Of a DNA stretch of 64,000 bases, positions 2,623 to 61,336 are shown in pieces. This stretch comes from a virus (taxonomy: Duplodnaviria; Heunggongvirae; Uroviricota; Caudoviricetes). The position numbers were made by a program, and so were the translations under genes. The stretch covers positions 1-64,000 of IMG/VR virus record IMGVR_UViG_2529293038_000017. One strand, 5' to 3'. The number at the start of each line of letters is the position of its first letter. Position 1 is the first letter of the stretch. The notes beneath the pieces were generated by a model. That model was given only the letters and a program-made list of their open reading frames with translations. It ran no database searches and was not told the DNA's origin.

Positions 2623-2773
2623 TAAATATATTATTTTTAATCTGAAATAATTGACAACTGACAAGTGACTTCAGTCAGAATCATCACACGCCCGGTACGG
2701 ATGGATCCCTTTTCAAATATTCCATGGACGGCACAGTCTGAGTACCGGGCGCTACCTTCAGTTGTATTGCTAA

Positions 2774-2799
2774 GCCGCCGCTGGTGGCTTTTCTTTTTT
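2774..2799 (+). terminator. Rho-independent terminator or attenuator immediately upstream of mat
   Basis: GCCGCCG/CTGGTGGC hairpin followed by TTTTCTTTTTT; an AGGGG Shine-Dalgarno and the mat ATG follow within 12 bp. Confidence 0.5.
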
Positions 2800-2810
2800 G
2801 TAGGGGCGCT

Positions 2811-3452
2811 ATGGATAAGAAAATATGCGTTGTTTCGATGAGCGTCGGCAAACCGGCGTCAATGACTGCTGCATGGATCAACAACGAGCTGATAATGGCT
2901 GAGCGGACCAGCTACCCTGAACGCCGCCGCGATATGGAACTCCAGTTGCTGCGCGAATTGCGTGAGAAAGAGGAAAAAGGTTTTATCGTGCTGGTGGAAG
3001 AGGAAAACAGCTTTATTACCGGTAGAGTTGGCCAGCGTGTAAGGTTGCGCGATCCCTTCATGAACGGCAGGCCGGTACTAATTGAGGCAATGCAGATTTA
3101 TAAGGAGCTGGAACGCCAGAAAGCAATCAAGTTACCGCGCAAGGAATCCGGCAAATACATCCTCCACCAAAGCATCTTCGATTCCGAACACGACAAAAAA
3201 GGCGATGAATTTTTCAACATCAACTGGAGCGAAATAACGACAGAGCATGTTCTGACGTTACTATGTTGCTTTGCGACGGAATACAACAACGTTGCCAGCG
3301 CAGACTACATCAGGGCAATGGCTGGAGAAGTTGAGGCACGCCAGGAACCATCGTTACTAAGCCCTCTGATTAACATAATTCGCGGAACCCAAACGCTGGC
3401 ACAAAAACAGGTGCCTAAGGGAGTATTAACAGGAAAAGGAAATTATCTATAA
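2811..3452 (+). CDS. mat: Mat-like protein (213 aa)
   Basis: ATG at 2811 with AGGGG Shine-Dalgarno (the ORF-track start at 2784 lies inside the terminator). Position matches P1 mat downstream of ref; identity is from synteny only. Confidence 0.5.
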   Translation: MDKKICVVSMSVGKPASMTAAWINNELIMAERTSYPERRRDMELQLLRELREKEEKGFIVLVEEENSFITGRVGQRVRLRDPFMNGRPVLIEAMQIYKELERQKAIKLPRKESGKYILHQSIFDSEHDKKGDEFFNINWSEITTEHVLTLLCCFATEYNNVASADYIRAMAGEVEARQEPSLLSPLINIIRGTQTLAQKQVPKGVLTGKGNYL

Positions 3453-3508
3453 ACGTCAATGCATTAGGGTATACTTCTCCGTAGAACTATAAGTAAATGG
3501 AGTAAGTA

Positions 3509-4333
3509 ATGAGCGAGTATATAGAAATTGCCTATGCAGCAGCTACACATAGGCTGTGCTTTCTTACAGGCACTGGATTTTCAAAGGCTGTTTCTGATGA
3601 TAAAGCCCCAAGTTGGCAATCTTTATTGGAGCAACTGTGCGGTTTATTGAAGGATGGTGACTCACTCAAAGAGGAATTATTTCCTGATGGAAAAGCAAAA
3701 GACCTTAGCCTTGAAGAGGCTGCTCAGGTTATTGCACTAAAATTTATACTTTCGGGGAAAAATATTTACCAGGAGATTGAGAAAATCATAGCCTCAATCG
3801 AACTTGATCCATCAATTGAATATATTCAAGACTTTTTCAAAGAAAACACATTTAAAGTAATTACGACAAATTATGACAAGTTAGCAGAAAAACTGGCTGG
3901 AGAGAATCGAACGTGTACAATCACCCCCGGCCTGCCAATTCCAAAATATAATTGTGAGGTTAAAGTCTACCATGTTCACGGCTCTATAGACTCCCCATCA
4001 GATATGGTTGTTACTAGCGAGGATTATTTCAGATTTATAAATGGTAATTCTTACTTTTCAAATAAACTAAGCACAGTTCTACATGAAAACACTATTGTTA
4101 TTCTTGGCTATTCTCTAAGTGACGCGAACCTCAAGGCGATTATAAATGAATATAAGGTATTTTCACGGGACAACGTAATGTCCTCCAATATTTTCCTTAT
4201 TTCCCGAGGGAAACTATTGCAACCTATTAAAGATTACTATTTTTCCTGCTTTGGGATTAGGGTTATAGATAAAACAGAGGTGTCTGATTTCTTTAGAAAA
4301 CTTAACAAGAAAATTCCAGAAGCAAAAAAATAA
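3509..4333 (+). CDS. SIR2-like (sirtuin-fold, predicted NAD+-consuming) protein, 274 aa; candidate defence effector
   Basis: GGAG Shine-Dalgarno 6 nt before the ATG. Motifs in SIR2-family order: FLTGTGFSKA (Rossmann GxGxS), VITTNYD (catalytic Asn), VYHVHGS (catalytic His). AT-rich relative to flanks. No database search run. Confidence 0.75.
   Translation: MSEYIEIAYAAATHRLCFLTGTGFSKAVSDDKAPSWQSLLEQLCGLLKDGDSLKEELFPDGKAKDLSLEEAAQVIALKFILSGKNIYQEIEKIIASIELDPSIEYIQDFFKENTFKVITTNYDKLAEKLAGENRTCTITPGLPIPKYNCEVKVYHVHGSIDSPSDMVVTSEDYFRFINGNSYFSNKLSTVLHENTIVILGYSLSDANLKAIINEYKVFSRDNVMSSNIFLISRGKLLQPIKDYYFSCFGIRVIDKTEVSDFFRKLNKKIPEAKK
4324..4333 (+). promoter_or_regulatory. Candidate -1 frameshift site: slippery heptamer A_AAA_AAA followed immediately by the TAA stop
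   Basis: Codons GCA AAA AAA TAA; the -1 frame (AAA AAA ATA AAA GAC AAA TTG...) is open into the 4342..4812 ORF. Confidence 0.3.
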
Positions 4334-4341
4334 AAGACAAA

Positions 4342-4812
4342 TTGAGGCACTCAATCAAATCGGTAATAAAAAACGGAAGAGAGTATAAAATAGAGTTCTT
4401 GAAGTTAGAGGATTCTTTTTATCATATCATTTCCTCCATTTCATCATCTGGATATAGCTGGAATGATGAAAAGGTATTAAATGTTTTTTGTGATATAATA
4501 GATAAAAAAATAGATCTTACTAAAGAGTCTGGCGCATGGGAGCAGTATGAACACCTGGCAAAATGGCTTATTTATTTCGGTAGTTTATTTGAAGTAAAAG
4601 GAACCAACTTTGAGAAAAAATACATACATGCGGTTGAACACTCAATGACTTATATGAATAAACCTTACGAAACAGGCTACTCATGGCGAGCATATCTAGC
4701 CTGGAAAACAAAATGGCCTTCACTGACAGCATCTAACCGCTCTCTTATTAAGAGTAAGATGGAAGAAATCCCGCTACAACAGATTCACGATATTATATCT
4801 AAGTTTATATAG
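4342..4812 (+). CDS. Hypothetical partner protein (156 aa), or C-terminal domain of a frameshift fusion with the SIR2-like protein
   Basis: ORF directly downstream of the SIR2-like gene in the -1 frame. The only start is a TTG with no Shine-Dalgarno. AT-rich; no recognisable motifs. Confidence 0.55.
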   Translation: MRHSIKSVIKNGREYKIEFLKLEDSFYHIISSISSSGYSWNDEKVLNVFCDIIDKKIDLTKESGAWEQYEHLAKWLIYFGSLFEVKGTNFEKKYIHAVEHSMTYMNKPYETGYSWRAYLAWKTKWPSLTASNRSLIKSKMEEIPLQQIHDIISKFI

Positions 4813-4820
4813 TATATTTA

Positions 4821-4849
4821 TCTCCGGCCTAATCTCCCTAGGCCGGAGA
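4821..4849. terminator. Strong 11-bp stem hairpin separating the SIR2 cassette from lxc
   Basis: TCTCCGGCCTA (4821-4831) pairs with TAGGCCGGAGA (4839-4849) around a 7-nt loop. Confidence 0.55.
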
Positions 4850-4853
4850 GTTC

Positions 4854-5102
4854 TTAATCAGCATTCAGGAGCAATGCGTTATCTATGATGATCTGCTCCC
4901 ATTCCTCGAATGCCCGGTCGCGGACGCCCTGGGGAACGCTGTTAGTTTTGAAATCGACGACCGTCCGCCATTTCCCGTCCGGACGGTACATGCGCAGAGC
5001 TTTACTTCCCCCTTCCCTGCGCACCTCAACGTTATGCTTGTCAGCAAACTCTTGTAATGCTCGTAGCGTCCCATGCTTTACTGTGTAGTATCGCTTTTTC
5101 AA
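4854..5102 (-). CDS. lxc: Lxc/Bof-like C1 co-repressor modulator (82 aa)
   Basis: 82-aa ORF directly downstream of ulx, overlapping it by 4 bp. Size and synteny match P1 lxc (from memory). Confidence 0.6.
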   Translation of the reverse strand: MKKRYYTVKHGTLRALQEFADKHNVEVRREGGSKALRMYRPDGKWRTVVDFKTNSVPQGVRDRAFEEWEQIIIDNALLLNAD

Positions 5103-5539
5103 GTTTTCTCTCCAGCCTGTGCCAAGGCTTCAACTTCCAAATCGTAAGACTCAAACTCATAGTCCTGGTCGTCAACTTCTTCAGGCACTGGCAGTAAATG
5201 CCAGGCTGAGTATATCTGACCATTATCAAAACGCTCCTGGCTGTAGAGCGTCGCGGCTATGAGTGTTAGCGCCGGGCGGTCATAACGGTAAATTTTGCGA
5301 ACGTCACGGTCAACGAGACGACCGAAATTACCATAACCGCGCTCCAGTAATAATTTTTTAATTTCCGGCCAGTATGGACCATAGCTGCGGTACAGGCGGG
5401 GATTTTTCAGTAATCGCCCGCGTAGCCCTGACAGGAAGAAATCAACGTATTCGTCTTCTGTCTTTCCTAACAACGCTGTACGGAGTACCGCCTCAAGATA
5501 TGTTTTATTCGGTTTTATTGTATCAGATAGTGTGGCCAT
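5099..5539 (-). CDS. ulx: Ulx-like protein (146 aa)
   Basis: Lies between darB and lxc in the same orientation, as P1 ulx does. Confidence 0.6.
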   Translation of the reverse strand: MATLSDTIKPNKTYLEAVLRTALLGKTEDEYVDFFLSGLRGRLLKNPRLYRSYGPYWPEIKKLLLERGYGNFGRLVDRDVRKIYRYDRPALTLIAATLYSQERFDNGQIYSAWHLLPVPEEVDDQDYEFESYDLEVEALAQAGEKT

Positions 5540-5572
5540 ATTATGCGACGCCCGGCGAACCGGGCGCTCCTG

Positions 5573-8500
5573 TTATGCGTATTGTTGGATGACGGCCAGA
5601 ACGTCCGCCACGTTGTGTTTTGTCTCGATAATCCACCAGTTACCCGGGAAATCGCTGTTCTTCGCCTTCGCTGGCAGCCAGCGAGCGCCGAATTTCGCCT
5701 TGATTGCGTCTTTCGCACGGAAAAGAACGCCTTTCATGCCTGAGGCTTCCTGAAGCCCAAATACCTCGCCAGCGGCGAATTTTGGTGCGTACATCATCTT
5801 CAGGTCGGCGGTGGATACGCGATAATTCAGACCAAGAGACTGAGCTATGCTGGTGGCATCACCCTGTATTGATGATAACTCTTCTTGTTTCTCGTTTCTG
5901 GCGGCAATCTCTTCCTCCGTGATGTTGCCAAGGGCCAGGTTTATCCGATCAGCGTCGGCCTGTTTCTCTTCATCGGTGCGCCCGGCAAGAACCGTGTTAA
6001 TTCTCTGCAATATCTCCACATGATTCTTGCGCATGCTGAGCAATTCCGGCGTAACCTCGTTAAGATCCACCAGCCCAAGGATGGCAAGGTCGGAAAACAT
6101 TGATACCAGGTTGTAGGTCATGCGATAGCTGAGTTGACCATAGGCTGATGGCAACTGCACCGCATCCATTTTATAGGCATCCATAAATTTAGAGCCGTCG
6201 TTTACGACATCCGCAATTGCCGGTGTGATTTTTCCTGTGGTGGCGGCCTCCCTGATTGCTGTTACCCACGATTGAGTCAGCGCGGAAACTGCATGATTCA
6301 GATTGGCTTTGCGTTCTGCTGCAATGCGCGCGCTTGCAGCGTCCATTGACTGTTTGATCTCGTCTTTATTGCTGTAAATGCCAATGGTGCCAAACTGTGC
6401 TGTGGTGATCTCATAATCTGACGCCCGGAACTCATTGGTACCGAAAATAGCATTGGTGACTTCAAGTTCAGAATCCCCGTTACGAGTAGCCCCCTGGCTT
6501 GTTTTTTCCGGCATTCTGGCGATCGCATCCGCTATTTTCTCCTGAATTGCTTCAGGGGATAGCGTATCTCCGTATGACGCGATTACATCGCCATAATTGG
6601 AGCCAAACAGTTCAACCAGGAATGTTTCTGCCGAACGGATCTGGCGGTTATTCCCTTCCGACATCATACCAAGCACCCATTTTGCAATTGACGACTTCAG
6701 CGCGCCGTCACGGCGATCCGGGTAAACCGCATGCTTCAGTGGGTCCGTATAGGTACCAACAAAATCGATGCTATAGCCTGACTCTGTAGTCTGAACGCCG
6801 TATGAGTCAGTGATTTTGATCATGCCGCGCTGCTGGAAACGGTAGAAATCGTCACAGGAAATGATGTCGTTAATCCCGGCGATGGAGACGCCACCACTGA
6901 TTTTCTGCATAACAGCATCTTCATCGGGAGTTACATCAACCTGTTTATCCAGCGTCTTCACATCCCAGTTACCCGATTTGGTGCCTTTGAAGGTAAAGAT
7001 GATCTCCACGTCTGCGCGCTGGCTGTCGAAGTCCAGCGACTTAATGCGAACGATATCACCGGCACAATCGTAGTATTGGCCTACACGCCATGAGCGATCG
7101 CCGATAACAAGGAACTCATTCGCATGGTTAACCAGATCAGGATCAACATCCAGAATGCCTTTATTTATTGCATCCTCCACCAGCGGGCGCAGGCGTTTGA
7201 TATCCGTCGCGGCCTTCTGAGTACGGTTCAATAATTTCTCATAGCGGGAGATGGCTTGAGAGATATTAGCCTTGCGCTGAATGGCGCTTTTCAACGACGC
7301 GCGATACTGTGCTAACAACGTACGGTCTGTGTGATGGACGCTACCCCAGCGGGCTTTCCAGTCTGCGTTATCAGCTGCTTTGGCCATTACCGCCTGTTTG
7401 AATTTAGCTACCTCGGCGGTGGTCTTTTCAAGTTCCGCTTTGTTTCGCTCTAATTCAGCGGTAAGTACCTCCACATCCTCGCCAGCTGCGTGCTGCGCCT
7501 TGATGTAGTTCTGAAGGTCGATAGTAGCCTGTTCTTTCTGGCGAGCGCGTTGCGCGGCTTTCGCCTTATCCATTTGAACCTGCATCATTGCCAGACGTTC
7601 GCCATCATCCTTAGCGGTATACATCTGCATTTCGATCATATCGTTGGCGTCGGCGTTCTCCATTTCTGACTTATCTGAACGGAGGATATCGGAGATCCAG
7701 CCTGCTTTACGCTTCAGCGTCTTCAGTCGGTATTCATCGAAAGAACCCTTGCCGCAGTAGTAATGAACGCGAACGCTTGCACGGTTGGAGCCAACTCGGG
7801 CACCGCGACCGTTACGCTGTGCGATACTGGCTGGTGTCCATGGCAACGTCAGATGATGGATGTCAGTCGTTCCTCGATGCAGGTTGATACCCACCTCTGC
7901 CTTTTTGTTGCAGATGATGATCGGAGTCCGGCCCTCCTGGAAGTCTGCTGCAATCTTTTCCAGACCGCCCAACGACATTTCATTTTGCTGCGCGATATAG
8001 GCGTCATACAGAGCCATTTGCTCGTTGTATTTCGCTATCTGTGCATCTGTTGGTTCATCAGGTAACTCTTTCGGCGGTTTAACCGCTTTCAGTTTCTTAC
8101 CGGTTTTACCTGCCTCGGCAACCGTCTGAGCATTCAGGATCCCCACCTTTGAAGGTTCAAGGTTAAGAGCATTGCAGATAATGCGCTTGAGCTTCTGGTG
8201 CTGCGTTTTTTCGTCCGTGAAGATGATTTGCTTACCTTCCGGGAAAAACTCCTTCAGCGTGGCGATCAGCTTCGCGTATTTGGGTGTAACGGGGTGAGTT
8301 ACGGTCTGTTCGTCAATGCCAAACCTGGCCAGGCGCTTATTCACTTCCTGCTCGAACGCTTCCGGAACCTGCAACTGAATAAACTCGCCCTTATCTATCA
8401 GGGAGTATTGCGATTGCTGCGTGATTGAATCATCACTGTCGTCGTCTTCGCTGGTGGCTTGTTTAGGCAAACTGTCCGCCAGCTGCTGCACCGCATCGGC

Positions 8501-11500
8501 GTACTCCGGCAGGAAACGATAGGTGATCCGGCGATAGTACAGGTCCATGTCAGTACATACGCGGTCCATATCCCTGATTATTGAGAAGATCGGACGGGCT
8601 TTCTCGTGCTCAATCACGCCGTCTTCATTAACCGAGGTCGTTACGCCATTGTTGGCTTTTGCTGCCGCTTCCGCCTGCTGACGTAATTCTTCATACGCCG
8701 CCAGTTGTTCTTCAGTAAGTGGTGCATCCTGCTGGTGTTCGTCCAGTTCCGGGATCTCCACGGTATCCTTAACGTCTTCCGCCGTTTTAAGCGTTGTCCA
8801 GCGATGGAATATGCCGCGCAGCGCATCAAGGTTTTCAAAGCCCACCAGCGCCATTTTTTCTTCAACTTCACCGCTGATTTTCTGTACCGTTTCCAGCCTG
8901 GTCTTGCCGAAGAATTTAACGAAGTCATCAGGACCGTAGATCCCCATCTTCTGCCAGTATTCCTTCGGCAGAACATGAGAAAGCATGTTGTATGCATCGA
9001 TCGGGGTGTTAACGACTGGCGTTGCAGTCAGGAGAACCGGTCCGCGCCCGCCATTCTTTTTCATCAGGTACGCGTTTTTGATTGCCATATCTCGCGCCGA
9101 TTGCGCCACCGCGCTGGTGGGCAGATAGGCCAGCTGTGACGATTCGCGACCATTTTTATAGCTATTGCGGTAGTTGTGGCCTTCGTCAGCAATCACGCTG
9201 TCGAAGCCCATATCCTCAAAGTACGGATACTTCTCTGCTTTTTCGGTACCGGTATCTGAATACTCCGACAATACCCGGCGACGCGCCGCCTCTTTGCGAT
9301 GGGAATCGGAGTCCATTGCGCTGGCCACACGCCCGGCAGCAACGAAGTCATAAAGCATGTCTTGTGCATGCTCATCTACGGTGTCATCACGTAGCGGAAT
9401 GCGGGCGTATTGTTCTTTGGTAAACACGACTGCACGGTAATTTGAGTGCGGGATCGCGTTCATCCGCGCCGTGATAGTGGCTTCATCTGCCAGTTTTAGG
9501 GCATCGCGCATAACTGGAGTGCCATCTGCACCAACGACAGGTTTACCGTTCTCATCGAGCACCGGCACCTGGCGAATCTGATCGCCATCCATCAGCACAT
9601 CAAGACCGACGAACAGGTAGTTACTGAATGCCTCTTCACTCAGAAACTCTTTTGCTTCGTAATACCAGTTTTCCAGCACTGATTTAGGCACTACATACGC
9701 AGTACGGGTGGAACGACCGTTCTCATAGTTGAACGCCTCAAGCGCCAGCGCGGTCGTGGTTTTACCCAGCCCGGTACCGAAGCCCAGGATGCCGCGCCCA
9801 TCTTCGGACAGTCGGCGCACCTCGCTATTCTGGTAATCAAATGGCTGTCGCTTACCGCTTAATCCCTTCAACCCAAGCGGATCGCCAGAGTGTTCATACG
9901 GGATATTGCTATTGAACACATCGTTGTATTTGGCAACCAGCTCATCGTAGCGATCGTGCGTCTTGATCCACTTATTGAACTGGTCCTCAAGCAGTGCCAT
10001 CTGCTCACGATAGCCGTTCGCCGTCGCGCTATCTTTGCCACCGATACGCGCACCATTGAGATACTTTTCCAGCTGTGCCGGGAACCCGGTCGCGTTTTCT
10101 CCTGATTTACGGTCCCACTCGTAGCGGATCTCGCCTGTTTCTTTATCCTTGCGCTGGACGACACCGTATCGGTGCCCGACGAACAGGCCATCACCACCGT
10201 GATAGGTGTCAGAAACCATTTCGTCGCCTTCCAGCTGCACTGACTGCACATAGCGCAGATCCGGATAGCCGTTTTCCTGCAAAAACTCCAGAATGACGGA
10301 ACGGTCGAACCAACGGCTATTGAGCTTAAAGCGGATATTCTCTGCTGGCGTCTTGATGCGCTTCTCTTCGATCGCTGCCAGCTGATTAAGGACGTTGTTC
10401 TTTACTGGACCGTCGGGGAGCGTGGCGAGGAATTCCTGTTTTGGAGCCACTATCTCGTTAATGTCGCCGCTGGTGGCGCGGGCGAACGGAACAATCCCGC
10501 CATACGGTGAAACCGCAATGCCAGGGGTGCTGGCCAATAAATTAAGCAACTCGTCATCACTGGCTGGCAGTTCGCCGGTAAACGCAAGGCGGAAATCATC
10601 GAGCTGGATTGGATCGCGAGTGAGATCACTGTAGAGATAACGCAGGGTGTCCTGATAGCTGGTGGAGTCATAACTGGCGCTGGAATCATGCGTAACCAGC
10701 TTTCCTGTCAGCTCGTCAGAAATAGTACCATCCAGCTTAATTGCACCACGGAAAGCAAACCAGGCGCGCGCACCGCTCCCCGATAATTTCGCTATCGGAC
10801 CGCGACCGGGGTTACCAAAACGGTCAATCTCTGCCTGCAAACGGGATACCAGGGAAAGGCGCTGCTGTTCGATTTGTTCAGCACTATGCCCGGCGGCCTT
10901 CATATCCTGATATTCAATTAACATCCGGCCAATCATCGCCCCGCGATACAAGCGTTCACGGTATTTTTCAGGCTGGCTGTTAATCCAGTCCACCAGCTGC
11001 ACCATATCGTCGCTGATTGATGTGGTGTACTTATCGCGGACATTTGCCATCTGGGTAAATGTCATACCGAGACGGCCTTCTGTTGTAGTCAGGTTACGCT
11101 GAAGAGCCTCCCAGCTGTCCGCGCCATAACTGGCAACATCAATCTTCAGCTCCTTCCCGGCATCAGATTCAATCCAGCGACCACCAGCATATTTTTGCCA
11201 TACGCCATTAATCAGGCGCATTTCCCCTTCATCAACAACGTCTGCGGTCGGTGACGGTTCAGCCATATCGAACAAAGACCAGTCGATACGACTTTCGAAA
11301 CGATGAATCAGCTTCGCTTTAAGAGCCTGGTTATCAATCTGCCCGTCGGCACGAACCTCAATACGCCCCTGGAATCCCTTCTCCTGGGTGCCATGAACAA
11401 AACGGCGGCCGTCCTTTTCAAACCACTTGCCAGAAATAAACGTTGGCCAAAGCACATTTGCCGATTCAAGAGTGCCTTCATCCACCAGGGGGATTTTCTC

Positions 11501-12340
11501 AGCCATCTCCGCCGGATGTTTGCGCATCAGCACCACGTCAACGACCGTACTGGTCCCGTTTGCGTCAAAAGTACCGGTAGGCAAGCGGTGGGCACCAAGA
11601 AATTCAGCTTTCCGTGATAGGCGCAGGCGTAACCGCTTCATGTTTGAACCTGAAACAATGGACGGCGGCACAATCACACACATGAATCCGCCTGGCTTTA
11701 TCTTGTCCAGCATGCGGAGCATGAAGTAAGACCCCATATCCGTTTCTTCTGCGTAAGGCTTATCGATGTTGCGTGTGTTATCACGACCGCCGAACGGAAC
11801 GTTACCCACAACATGGTCGAATGAATCGTTAGGCGTGCTTACAGCCAGTTGTTCGAACGGGGAAATCTGTACGCTGTCTTCCGGATGTAACAGCTGGTTT
11901 ATACGACCGGAAACACTGCTGATCTCAGTCGCGGTCATCACCGTACCAACCGGTTTTGTCTCATTAAAAACGCCGGTGCCCGCCGATGGTTCCAGAGTGT
12001 TACCTACGTCCGCGCCATAGAGCTTCATGATCTCCCAGACGCCTTCAGCGATAGGCTTTGGTGTGTAATATTCGGAGACGGACCCGCCAATGCCGCCTTC
12101 ACCAGTGTACCCGGCCAGGATCTGGCGCTGTTCATCTGTCAGTGTCGCGCCGTCCACCAGCGAATTAAGCAAATCTATCGCCTTCTGATTCGCCTCCCGG
12201 CGCAGCCGGTCATAGCTTTTGCCTTCCACCTTTTCCACGCCGTATCTAATCGGCGCTCGATGAGATGTTATTGCCCTAATGTATTTCAATATTTCGCTGA
12301 CACTTGAACAGCGAAACAACCCCATAGATAGCTTGTTCAT
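5573..12340 (-). CDS. darB: DarB antirestriction protein (2255 aa) with N6-adenine methyltransferase and DExH helicase domains
   Basis: Length identical to P1 DarB as remembered. MTase motif HVVGNVPFGG, Walker A GFGTGLGKT, DExH box VIADEGHNYRN. AAGGA Shine-Dalgarno 8 nt before the ATG. Confidence 0.9.
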   Translation of the reverse strand: MNKLSMGLFRCSSVSEILKYIRAITSHRAPIRYGVEKVEGKSYDRLRREANQKAIDLLNSLVDGATLTDEQRQILAGYTGEGGIGGSVSEYYTPKPIAEGVWEIMKLYGADVGNTLEPSAGTGVFNETKPVGTVMTATEISSVSGRINQLLHPEDSVQISPFEQLAVSTPNDSFDHVVGNVPFGGRDNTRNIDKPYAEETDMGSYFMLRMLDKIKPGGFMCVIVPPSIVSGSNMKRLRLRLSRKAEFLGAHRLPTGTFDANGTSTVVDVVLMRKHPAEMAEKIPLVDEGTLESANVLWPTFISGKWFEKDGRRFVHGTQEKGFQGRIEVRADGQIDNQALKAKLIHRFESRIDWSLFDMAEPSPTADVVDEGEMRLINGVWQKYAGGRWIESDAGKELKIDVASYGADSWEALQRNLTTTEGRLGMTFTQMANVRDKYTTSISDDMVQLVDWINSQPEKYRERLYRGAMIGRMLIEYQDMKAAGHSAEQIEQQRLSLVSRLQAEIDRFGNPGRGPIAKLSGSGARAWFAFRGAIKLDGTISDELTGKLVTHDSSASYDSTSYQDTLRYLYSDLTRDPIQLDDFRLAFTGELPASDDELLNLLASTPGIAVSPYGGIVPFARATSGDINEIVAPKQEFLATLPDGPVKNNVLNQLAAIEEKRIKTPAENIRFKLNSRWFDRSVILEFLQENGYPDLRYVQSVQLEGDEMVSDTYHGGDGLFVGHRYGVVQRKDKETGEIRYEWDRKSGENATGFPAQLEKYLNGARIGGKDSATANGYREQMALLEDQFNKWIKTHDRYDELVAKYNDVFNSNIPYEHSGDPLGLKGLSGKRQPFDYQNSEVRRLSEDGRGILGFGTGLGKTTTALALEAFNYENGRSTRTAYVVPKSVLENWYYEAKEFLSEEAFSNYLFVGLDVLMDGDQIRQVPVLDENGKPVVGADGTPVMRDALKLADEATITARMNAIPHSNYRAVVFTKEQYARIPLRDDTVDEHAQDMLYDFVAAGRVASAMDSDSHRKEAARRRVLSEYSDTGTEKAEKYPYFEDMGFDSVIADEGHNYRNSYKNGRESSQLAYLPTSAVAQSARDMAIKNAYLMKKNGGRGPVLLTATPVVNTPIDAYNMLSHVLPKEYWQKMGIYGPDDFVKFFGKTRLETVQKISGEVEEKMALVGFENLDALRGIFHRWTTLKTAEDVKDTVEIPELDEHQQDAPLTEEQLAAYEELRQQAEAAAKANNGVTTSVNEDGVIEHEKARPIFSIIRDMDRVCTDMDLYYRRITYRFLPEYADAVQQLADSLPKQATSEDDDSDDSITQQSQYSLIDKGEFIQLQVPEAFEQEVNKRLARFGIDEQTVTHPVTPKYAKLIATLKEFFPEGKQIIFTDEKTQHQKLKRIICNALNLEPSKVGILNAQTVAEAGKTGKKLKAVKPPKELPDEPTDAQIAKYNEQMALYDAYIAQQNEMSLGGLEKIAADFQEGRTPIIICNKKAEVGINLHRGTTDIHHLTLPWTPASIAQRNGRGARVGSNRASVRVHYYCGKGSFDEYRLKTLKRKAGWISDILRSDKSEMENADANDMIEMQMYTAKDDGERLAMMQVQMDKAKAAQRARQKEQATIDLQNYIKAQHAAGEDVEVLTAELERNKAELEKTTAEVAKFKQAVMAKAADNADWKARWGSVHHTDRTLLAQYRASLKSAIQRKANISQAISRYEKLLNRTQKAATDIKRLRPLVEDAINKGILDVDPDLVNHANEFLVIGDRSWRVGQYYDCAGDIVRIKSLDFDSQRADVEIIFTFKGTKSGNWDVKTLDKQVDVTPDEDAVMQKISGGVSIAGINDIISCDDFYRFQQRGMIKITDSYGVQTTESGYSIDFVGTYTDPLKHAVYPDRRDGALKSSIAKWVLGMMSEGNNRQIRSAETFLVELFGSNYGDVIASYGDTLSPEAIQEKIADAIARMPEKTSQGATRNGDSELEVTNAIFGTNEFRASDYEITTAQFGTIGIYSNKDEIKQSMDAASARIAAERKANLNHAVSALTQSWVTAIREAATTGKITPAIADVVNDGSKFMDAYKMDAVQLPSAYGQLSYRMTYNLVSMFSDLAILGLVDLNEVTPELLSMRKNHVEILQRINTVLAGRTDEEKQADADRINLALGNITEEEIAARNEKQEELSSIQGDATSIAQSLGLNYRVSTADLKMMYAPKFAAGEVFGLQEASGMKGVLFRAKDAIKAKFGARWLPAKAKNSDFPGNWWIIETKHNVADVLAVIQQYA

Positions 12341-61182: not shown

Positions 61183-61258
61183 GATGGTGTAGCTCAGCGG
61201 TTAGAGCGGTTGACTGTTAATCAACGGGTCGATGGTTCAAATCCATCCACCATCGCCA
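61183..61258 (+). tRNA. tRNA-Asn (anticodon GTT)
   Basis: Manual cloverleaf: acceptor GATGGTG/CACCATC, D-arm GCTC-AGCGGTTA-GAGC, anticodon arm GTTGA-CTGTTAA-TCAAC, T-arm GATGG-TTCAAAT-CCATC, encoded CCA. Confidence 0.9.
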
Positions 61259-61260
61259 AT

Positions 61261-61336
61261 GCCGGTTTAGCTCAGTTGGTAGAGCGCCTGCCTTGTAAGC
61301 AGGATGTCAGCGGTTCGAGTCCGTTAATCGGCACCA
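61261..61336 (+). tRNA. tRNA-Thr (anticodon TGT)
   Basis: Manual cloverleaf: acceptor GCCGGTT/AATCGGC, anticodon arm CCTGC-CTTGTAA-GCAGG, T-arm AGCGG-TTCGAGT-CCGTT, encoded CCA. Confidence 0.9.

Follow-up and report, generated by a model that had tools for sequence, protein, structure and literature searches.

A single SIR2-family gene with a frameshifted poly(A) allele occupies the variable mat-lxc slot of a P1-like phage-plasmid

The stretch of DNA analysed here (the window) comprises 64,000 nucleotides of the IMG/VR virus record IMGVR_UViG_2529293038_000017, and its source is a P1-like phage-plasmid. The present analysis concerns the interval 3453-4853, which lies between the genes mat and lxc and carries a SIR2-family cargo. 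Judged by sequence, this interval is one gene of 434 codons, and the second of the two open reading frames (ORFs) seen in it encodes the C-terminal domain of this one protein. It is likely that the window holds an OFF allele of this gene, in which a poly(A) tract is one A short, and that the intact form is a DSR2-like cargo hydrolysing nicotinamide adenine dinucleotide (NAD+), a mechanism that we infer by analogy. The combination of a SIR2 domain with a helical solenoid in 434 amino acids (aa) constitutes a widespread standalone family, experimentally uncharacterised, which is found here in an already known variable slot.

The original prediction had described two AT-rich ORFs at this place and both of them are present. 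ORF1 (3509-4333, plus strand) starts with ATG and encodes 274 aa, which are codons 1-274 and contain the full SIR2 domain. ORF2 (4342-4812, plus strand) encodes 156 aa from a TTG and is the portion of the C-terminal stretch that follows this in-frame TTG. Their interpretation as a two-gene cassette with a 156-aa partner protein could not be upheld, as one gene is split by a -1 frameshift in poly(A). Codons 275-434 are found at 4330..4812 (plus strand), in the -1 frame with respect to ORF1, and encode the remaining part of a linker helix and the helical C-terminal domain. The profile phrog_7567, which has 434 positions, spans both ORFs, ORF1 corresponding to its positions 1-274 (E=3e-185) and ORF2 to positions 279-434 (E=5e-96). 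In NZ_CP023961.1 (locus L001 of our collection) a single 434-aa coding sequence (CDS), WP_000006034.1, extends over the same interval. Across these 1401 bp the sole difference between that record and the window is one missing A, by which a run of eight (A8) becomes a run of seven (A7) at 4324-4330. With A8 the protein reads PEAKK-IKDK-LRHS, and 274 + 4 + 156 residues add up to 434; with A7 the frameshift brings a premature TAA into frame and ORF1 ends after residue 274.

Homologues of the protein show the same architecture. In all, 665 of them were retrieved from a set of 5.8 billion proteins, and among the best 120 listed nearly all are 431-465 aa long, with query coverage of at least 94% and identity of 54-61%. 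In one-genome-per-species data 181 stretches encoding relatives were obtained; 68 near-full-length loci among them were examined, and 65 of these 68 have one intact ORF (about 419-464 codons, mostly 432-438). The cargo is also carried by 124 PLSDB plasmids, where the annotation is mostly a single "SIR2 family protein". A system of two genes, in which a 274-aa SIR2 effector acts with a separately translated 156-aa partner, would account for the two ORFs of the window, for the two CDSs annotated at the locus in some RefSeq records and for the existence of a 156-aa family, phrog_35181. However, the RefSeq records with two CDSs share the same A7 frameshift, the ORFs are fused in the 65 intact species loci and in most P1-like plasmids, and the break would fall within a predicted continuous helix. 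In addition, the TTG of ORF2 has no Shine-Dalgarno sequence upstream of it, and the shorter database entries that appear to hold the C-terminal domain alone are fragments which retain the end of the SIR2 domain. Two separate genes are thus almost certainly not what the window encodes. It was observed that gene callers place the start of ORF2 elsewhere, giving a shorter product. The remaining 3 of the 68 loci (L038, L080 and L088, from GTDB) have no intact ORF, and in two of them the length of the match is not a multiple of three. Because such loci occur among species-level homologues, the family is occasionally pseudogenised outside P1-like elements too.

The frameshift site is the A7 homopolymer at 4324..4330 (plus strand), which in intact alleles is A8. 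All 13 of the 13 IMG/VR contigs that cover the site have A8, and the match length corresponds to A8 in 54 of the 60 best Escherichia coli records. The A7 form is found in RM12579 and RM10386. A run of nine is present in NZ_JBWLLS010000002 (L117), which the annotation pipeline PGAP flags as "frameshifted". The same flag is attached to ETEC4073 (NZ_CP122664.1, L118), in which the T following the run is lost and the run merges with TAAAA into A12; this lesion, at the equivalent of window 4324-4335, is a different one at the same hotspot. In a table of 21 loci A7 occurs on at least four haplotypes of the cargo, and three of these have an A8 twin of identical cargo sequence: the window and L112 are twinned with L001, L017 and L025, L108 with L015, and L113 and L114 with L019. 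For the fourth haplotype, the divergent L002, a close A8 relative is L023. The frame downstream of A7 shows no secondary decay. Recurrent slippage is the parsimonious reading of this variation, and the slippage events are recent because the downstream frame carries no further damage. The allele of the window is most likely disabled, in an OFF state in which translation would end at residue 274.

It could be argued that A7 in the window is an error of sequencing or assembly and that the true state of the source is A8. Homopolymer errors are common, and NZ_CP028125 has A7 together with two more homopolymer deletions that resemble read errors. In this record (NZ_CP028125.1, L003) the two are single-base deletions in a C5 and a T6 run, at the equivalents of window 3924 and 4484, and are probably read errors. 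The window, however, has no other indel in comparison with the intact copies. The exact 274-aa product was found in 54 contigs in a cluster look-up and in 82 blocks of public assemblies, and the 24 contigs with this product that were read stem from several NCBI and Logan assemblies, independent of one another. One public contig, AIFB01000032.1 of GCA_000249195.2, agrees with the window at 100% of 2756 bp from mat to ulx, with A7 included. An artefact is therefore very unlikely, even if it counts among the points to be set against a disabled allele.

Natural populations contain A7, A8, A9 and A12 alleles, with tract lengths of the ON as well as the OFF kind, and this raises the question of phase variation. 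It could be possible that the A8 tract is kept as a reversible ON/OFF switch of a costly NADase, making this a contingency gene. The recurrence of A7 on several haplotypes with identical A8 twins and the undecayed downstream frame agree with such a switch, as does the location of the tract in the linker, the least conserved segment of the protein (35% identity), where Lys codons are tolerated. On the other hand, these data are also accounted for by repeated one-way loss at a mutational hotspot. A sister allele of this slot, 59% identical, lacks the tract, in the 93% allele a C breaks the A-run, and a run of 8 nucleotides switches slowly in mismatch-repair-proficient E. coli. Reversible switching is a tentative possibility of rather low probability. 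The stronger proposition, that the poly(A) is a true contingency switch and that the protein is in addition a hitherto uncharacterised sensor-effector made of one polypeptide, which spans phyla and responds to a trigger of its own, is rather doubtful. If the switch were real, abortive infection itself would be phase-variable on a phage-plasmid. The recurrence of frameshifts at a single A-tract suggests either a cost of carriage or switched expression, and is of interest for the balance that mobile elements strike between immunity and their own lytic cycle.

A further way of accounting for the tract is programmed -1 ribosomal frameshifting or transcriptional slippage, by which the A7 allele would yield, as dnaX does, both the 274-aa product and a certain amount of full-length protein. 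In the frame of ORF1 the A7 tract forms A_AAA_AAA, a perfect X_XXY_YYZ heptamer, and a -1 shift at this place gives exactly the 434-aa protein. Nevertheless, RNA folding revealed no stimulatory structure downstream of the tract (z -0.96) and no Rfam frameshift element was found. The in-frame A8 is the majority state, so that frameshifting would not be the ancestral mode of expression, and PGAP labels the variants as frameshifted pseudogenes. Because neither a stimulator nor an Rfam element was detected and A8 predominates, programmed frameshifting is unlikely, although low-level transcriptional slippage may occur on the A7 allele. Simple loss of an A from one gene is preferred as the explanation of the window allele.

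The three motifs on which the SIR2 assignment was originally made are in place on the plus strand: the GTGFS loop at residues 21-25 (3569-3583), TTNYD at residues 119-123 (3863-3877, with the Asn121 codon at 3869-3871) and HGS at residues 157-159 (3977-3985, with the His157 codon at 3977-3979). In a Pfam search ORF1 matched SIR2_2 (PF13289) with E=8.9e-23 and a score of 81.4 bits, the cut-off being 24.5, and gave no match to PF02146, the classical SIR2 family. PADLOC profiles matched at SIR2 cores were PDC-S25, ThsA, LmuA, Dsr1 and Dsr2. Residues G21-T-G-F-S25, N121 and H157 are invariant across 30 homologues. In the family profile residues 14-257 align with DSR2 40-273, which places N121 on the catalytic N133 and H157 on H171. 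The closest solved folds in Foldseek were DSR2 in first place (E ~2e-10), followed by KomC and ThsA, and the SIR2-family identity is thus supported by profile and by predicted structure.

SIR2 domains of immune systems, called "SIRim", have been characterised by the lack of a zinc-binding Cys tetrad and by a Rossmann sheet of seven or more strands (Bonhomme et al.). The cysteines of the present protein are C17, C44, C136, C149, C247 and C328, among which there is no CxxC pair and hence no such tetrad, and the predicted model has seven beta-strands in its Rossmann sheet. Both SIRim features are thus found, the one in the sequence and the other in the model, and by these features and its PF13289 match the N-terminal domain is of the immune-type branch of SIR2. 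The RefSeq name "NAD-dependent protein deacylase" is accordingly probably wrong. This product name, which comes from PGAP, is what speaks for a housekeeping sirtuin with no role in defence. Such a sirtuin would be expected neither from the SIR2_2 match in place of the classical family, nor from the missing tetrad, nor from the seven modelled strands that resemble those of immune SIR2 proteins. The patchy distribution of the gene, its carriage on mobile elements and its low GC content argue in the same direction, and a housekeeping function is highly improbable. For annotation it follows that "two genes" and "protein deacylase" are both misleading.

The structure of the intact protein was predicted with AlphaFold2 (mean predicted local distance difference test score, pLDDT, 81.8; predicted template modelling score, pTM, 0.79), with the sequence P0001 as input, which differs from the reconstructed protein of the window only by V190I. 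In this model a Rossmann domain (residues 1-257) is followed by a continuous helix (258-288) and by an all-helical domain that reaches residue 418, and the break at 274/275 falls inside the continuous helix. The C-terminal domain is predicted to be a family-specific alpha-solenoid of about 130 aa. Its mean identity within the family is 52%, and W344, Q346, Y347, W353, S392, W393, Y396, W399, W403, N410 and R411 are invariant. The 156-aa protein had been considered as devoid of recognisable motifs, and ORF2 alone indeed matched nothing in Pfam, NCBIfam or PADLOC; what the model adds is that it would be the helical C-terminal domain of the SIR2 protein itself. A phmmer search with ORF2 against 1.84 billion representatives found no fusion of this domain to other effectors. 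There was also no significant match in the BFVD viral structure library.

The intact protein is most likely a compact, self-contained NADase of abortive infection which resembles DSR2, and the compact NADase-based module proposed at first remains, by homology, the best reading for the intact allele; for the copy in the window it probably does not hold, since A7 has likely disabled it. By analogy with DSR2, the C-terminal solenoid and the linker would keep the SIR2 domain inactive until a cue derived from an infecting phage relieves the inhibition. Once released, the domain would hydrolyse NAD+ through N121 and H157, and the loss of NAD+ would abort the infection of a cell that carries the P1-like plasmid. 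A number of observations weigh against this picture. The proposed function is deduced from the homology between the SIR2 domain and its solved relatives, at about 16-20% identity. Conservation of the C-terminal domain and the absence of domain shuffling are less typical of a fast-evolving phage sensor, and this domain could instead serve oligomerisation or regulation. The signal of defence islands around the gene is modest, and many neighbours of the distant homologues are housekeeping genes. As regards the OFF state, the truncated 274-aa SIR2 domain may retain some activity.

If an autonomous NADase defence is what the gene encodes, the protein would be among the smallest SIR2 sensor-effectors, since its 434 aa are less than half the length of DSR1 or DSR2. 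Being small and free of partners, it would lend itself well to studies of the off-state and the triggering of SIR2 domains.

Comparison with known systems places the protein nearest to DSR2 of Bacillus subtilis. Both are single polypeptides in which an N-terminal PF13289-type SIR2 NADase domain is followed by helical repeats, their catalytic residues can be aligned as described above, and DSR2 heads the structural matches from the PDB. However, DSR2 has about 1000 aa (the equivalog model about 1000-1200) and is about 15-16% identical to the 434-aa protein, and its large C-terminal HEAT-like domain, which binds the phage tail-tube protein, is not matched here. The protein does not qualify as a DSR2: NCBIfam NF041819 gave 30.6 bits, on the SIR2 core only, against a cut-off of 1400, and of the 1222 positions in the PADLOC Dsr2 profile only 120-241 were matched. 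With ThsA of type I Thoeris the protein shares the SIR2 NADase core (PADLOC E=4e-18, in addition to PDB matches) and a similar overall size, but the SLOG (STALD) ligand-binding domain of ThsA is missing in the present protein, which has the alpha-solenoid instead. The C-terminal domain has no match to Pfam or PADLOC and the slot has no TIR gene, so the protein could not be counted as Thoeris. A ThsB partner is not conserved, a ThsB-like gene being found in 1 of 119 immediate neighbours (1 of 61 loci).

The other systems that unite SIR2 with a partner fared similarly. SIR2-HerA (Nezha), SIR2-pAgo (SPARSA) and Lamassu-SIR2 do not apply, as the flanking genes are mat and lxc and no recurrent partner was found in the 68 loci. 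This agrees with the original prediction, in which partners of the TIR, HerA, pAgo and SLOG types were said to be lacking. Another small SIR2 NADase of closely similar fold is KomC, from the Kongming system; it differs in having about 264-278 aa with no C-terminal solenoid and in working with KomA and KomB through a deoxyinosine-nucleotide signal. Genes of the KomA or KomB type did not flank the 434-aa family at any of the 68 loci, with 119 neighbours considered.

Among single-gene SIR2 candidates PDC-S25, with phrog_2695, deserves mention, since it gave the best PADLOC match (E=1.1e-25). This match, however, covers only positions 127-264 of 517 in the profile and residues 100-235 of the protein, which is the SIR2 core, and near full-length membership failed. 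The profiles of PDC-S25 and phrog_2695 have about 517-530 positions with other flanking regions, and PDC-S25 is itself a candidate system. Sole-Sir2 proteins likewise stand alone and have about 440 aa, and their Sir2 domain resembles the one in DSR2; they convert NAD+ to ADP-ribose in vitro, E. coli with a close homologue was protected from T2 and T4, and the founding members lie inside type I-C cas operons (bioRxiv 10.1101/2024.12.27.630466). In these proteins, compared here by their description only, the Sir2 domain is described as C-terminal, behind an unrelated N-terminal part, which is the opposite order to that of the present protein. The Sir2 homologue of Vassallo et al. 2022 is unlikely to be the 434-aa protein, as no PADLOC "PD-" model was matched. 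It was thus found, as had been supposed, that no named system in PADLOC-DB v2 or NCBIfam is matched in full. A literature search on the gene at the P1 slot, on WP_000006034 and on PDC-S25 returned nothing relevant.

The position of the gene is informative about its role as cargo. P1-like phage-plasmids spread resistance genes and serve as transducing tools. In the window the gene order is cre (422-1453), c8, ref, mat, the SIR2 cargo, lxc, ulx and darB. The conserved left boundary is mat (maturation control; 2811..3452, plus strand), which is annotated as a CDS in NZ_CP023961.1, RCS47 and P1, and comparison of the junctions revealed that the cargo starts at the first base 3' of the mat stop. 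A mechanical ORF for mat begins at a GTG at 2784 and has 222 aa, the RefSeq equivalent being 2811-3452 with 213 aa, and in P1 the gene is annotated longer, at 2716-3468 in P1 coordinates. The conserved right boundary is lxc (modulator of C1; 4854-5102, minus strand), whose stop adjoins the last base of the cargo; beyond it are ulx (5099-5539, minus strand) and darB (5573-12340, minus strand).

The statement that this position in P1 holds its restriction-modification genes was borne out by the reference record. NC_005856 has mat at 2716-3468, res at 3544-6456 (minus strand) and lxc at 9750-9998 (minus strand), and between res and lxc there are regulatory features labelled mod, with IS5 among them. 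The SIR2 cargo therefore occupies exactly the res/mod (EcoP1I) slot of P1. EcoP1I and the SIR2 cargo share the mat-lxc slot and a presumed role in the lysogen, that of excluding other phages; EcoP1I differs in that it is a type III restriction-modification system, unrelated to the SIR2 protein, is encoded on the opposite strand and takes up about 6 kb as compared to 1.4 kb. The res-mod segment has been described as "highly variable region 1" of P1-like phage-plasmids and tied to low GC (PMC9603915). In RCS47 (L006, 1998-2036) the slot is empty, with a gap of 39 bp between mat and lxc, and in vB_EcoM-673R5 (L005, 2091-3190) it holds a RelA/SpoT-family gene and a hypothetical gene; a RelA/SpoT-family gene likewise lies beneath the match in SJ46. 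In all three elements aligned (the window, RCS47 and 673R5) the cargo directly adjoins the mat stop codon at one end and the lxc stop codon at the other, and each cargo brings its own distinct GC-rich hairpin. The GC fraction of the cargo is 0.32-0.39 against 0.48-0.53 in the flanks, and 4001-5000 is the lowest-GC kilobase of the window.

The cargo matched 133 of 5426 complete E. coli genomes (about 2.5%), almost all on plasmids. It was found in plasmid and E. coli collections, and megablast against the INPHARED phage collection gave no match. In about 62 of the 133 E. coli records the match extends no further than the first ~140 nt of the cargo. One of these was fetched (NZ_CP043288.1, L120, 3057-4364) and has, in the same slot, a second allele class of 435 aa that is 59% identical; its DNA similarity is confined to the first ~140 nt and there is no poly(A) at its domain junction. 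A chromosomal homologue of E. coli (L007-L010, 8001-9311) has 436 aa and 56% identity, and lies directly downstream of an integrase at the end of a lambdoid prophage, which is another cargo position of a mobile element. The gene is widespread across Proteobacteria and beyond, homologues being found in many bacterial phyla as standalone genes of about 434 aa, with Vibrio, Halomonas, Pseudomonas and Pantoea among the named sources. No conserved partner gene was seen, as no neighbour family is common to more than 3 of the 68 loci, and such cases come from closely related species; nor does any Pfam family recur in more than 4 of the 119 immediate neighbours. PADLOC identified defence genes scattered among the neighbours, namely a type I restriction endonuclease, a dGTPase, AbiD, AbiU, HamB, GajB, PD-T7-1, PD-T7-5 and the one ThsB.

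The signals for expression of the SIR2 gene are few. Its leader (3453..3508, plus strand) has 56 nt and contains a GGAG Shine-Dalgarno sequence at 3498-3501, 7 nt 5' of the ATG. A promoter scan found no good sigma-70 consensus site in 3453-3508, and because of this expression of the gene may depend on read-through from the promoters of mat. At the other end, the strong hairpin noted earlier at 4821..4849 was confirmed as a GC-rich, cargo-borne structure with a stem of 11 bp (folding free energy -20.8 kcal/mol, z -4.84). The SIR2 gene and lxc converge on this hairpin, which is probably a terminator between them. Towards the far end of the window, tRNA-Asn(GTT) and tRNA-Thr(TGT) genes adjoin each other at 61183-61336 on the plus strand, and P1 presumably has a similar tRNA cluster.

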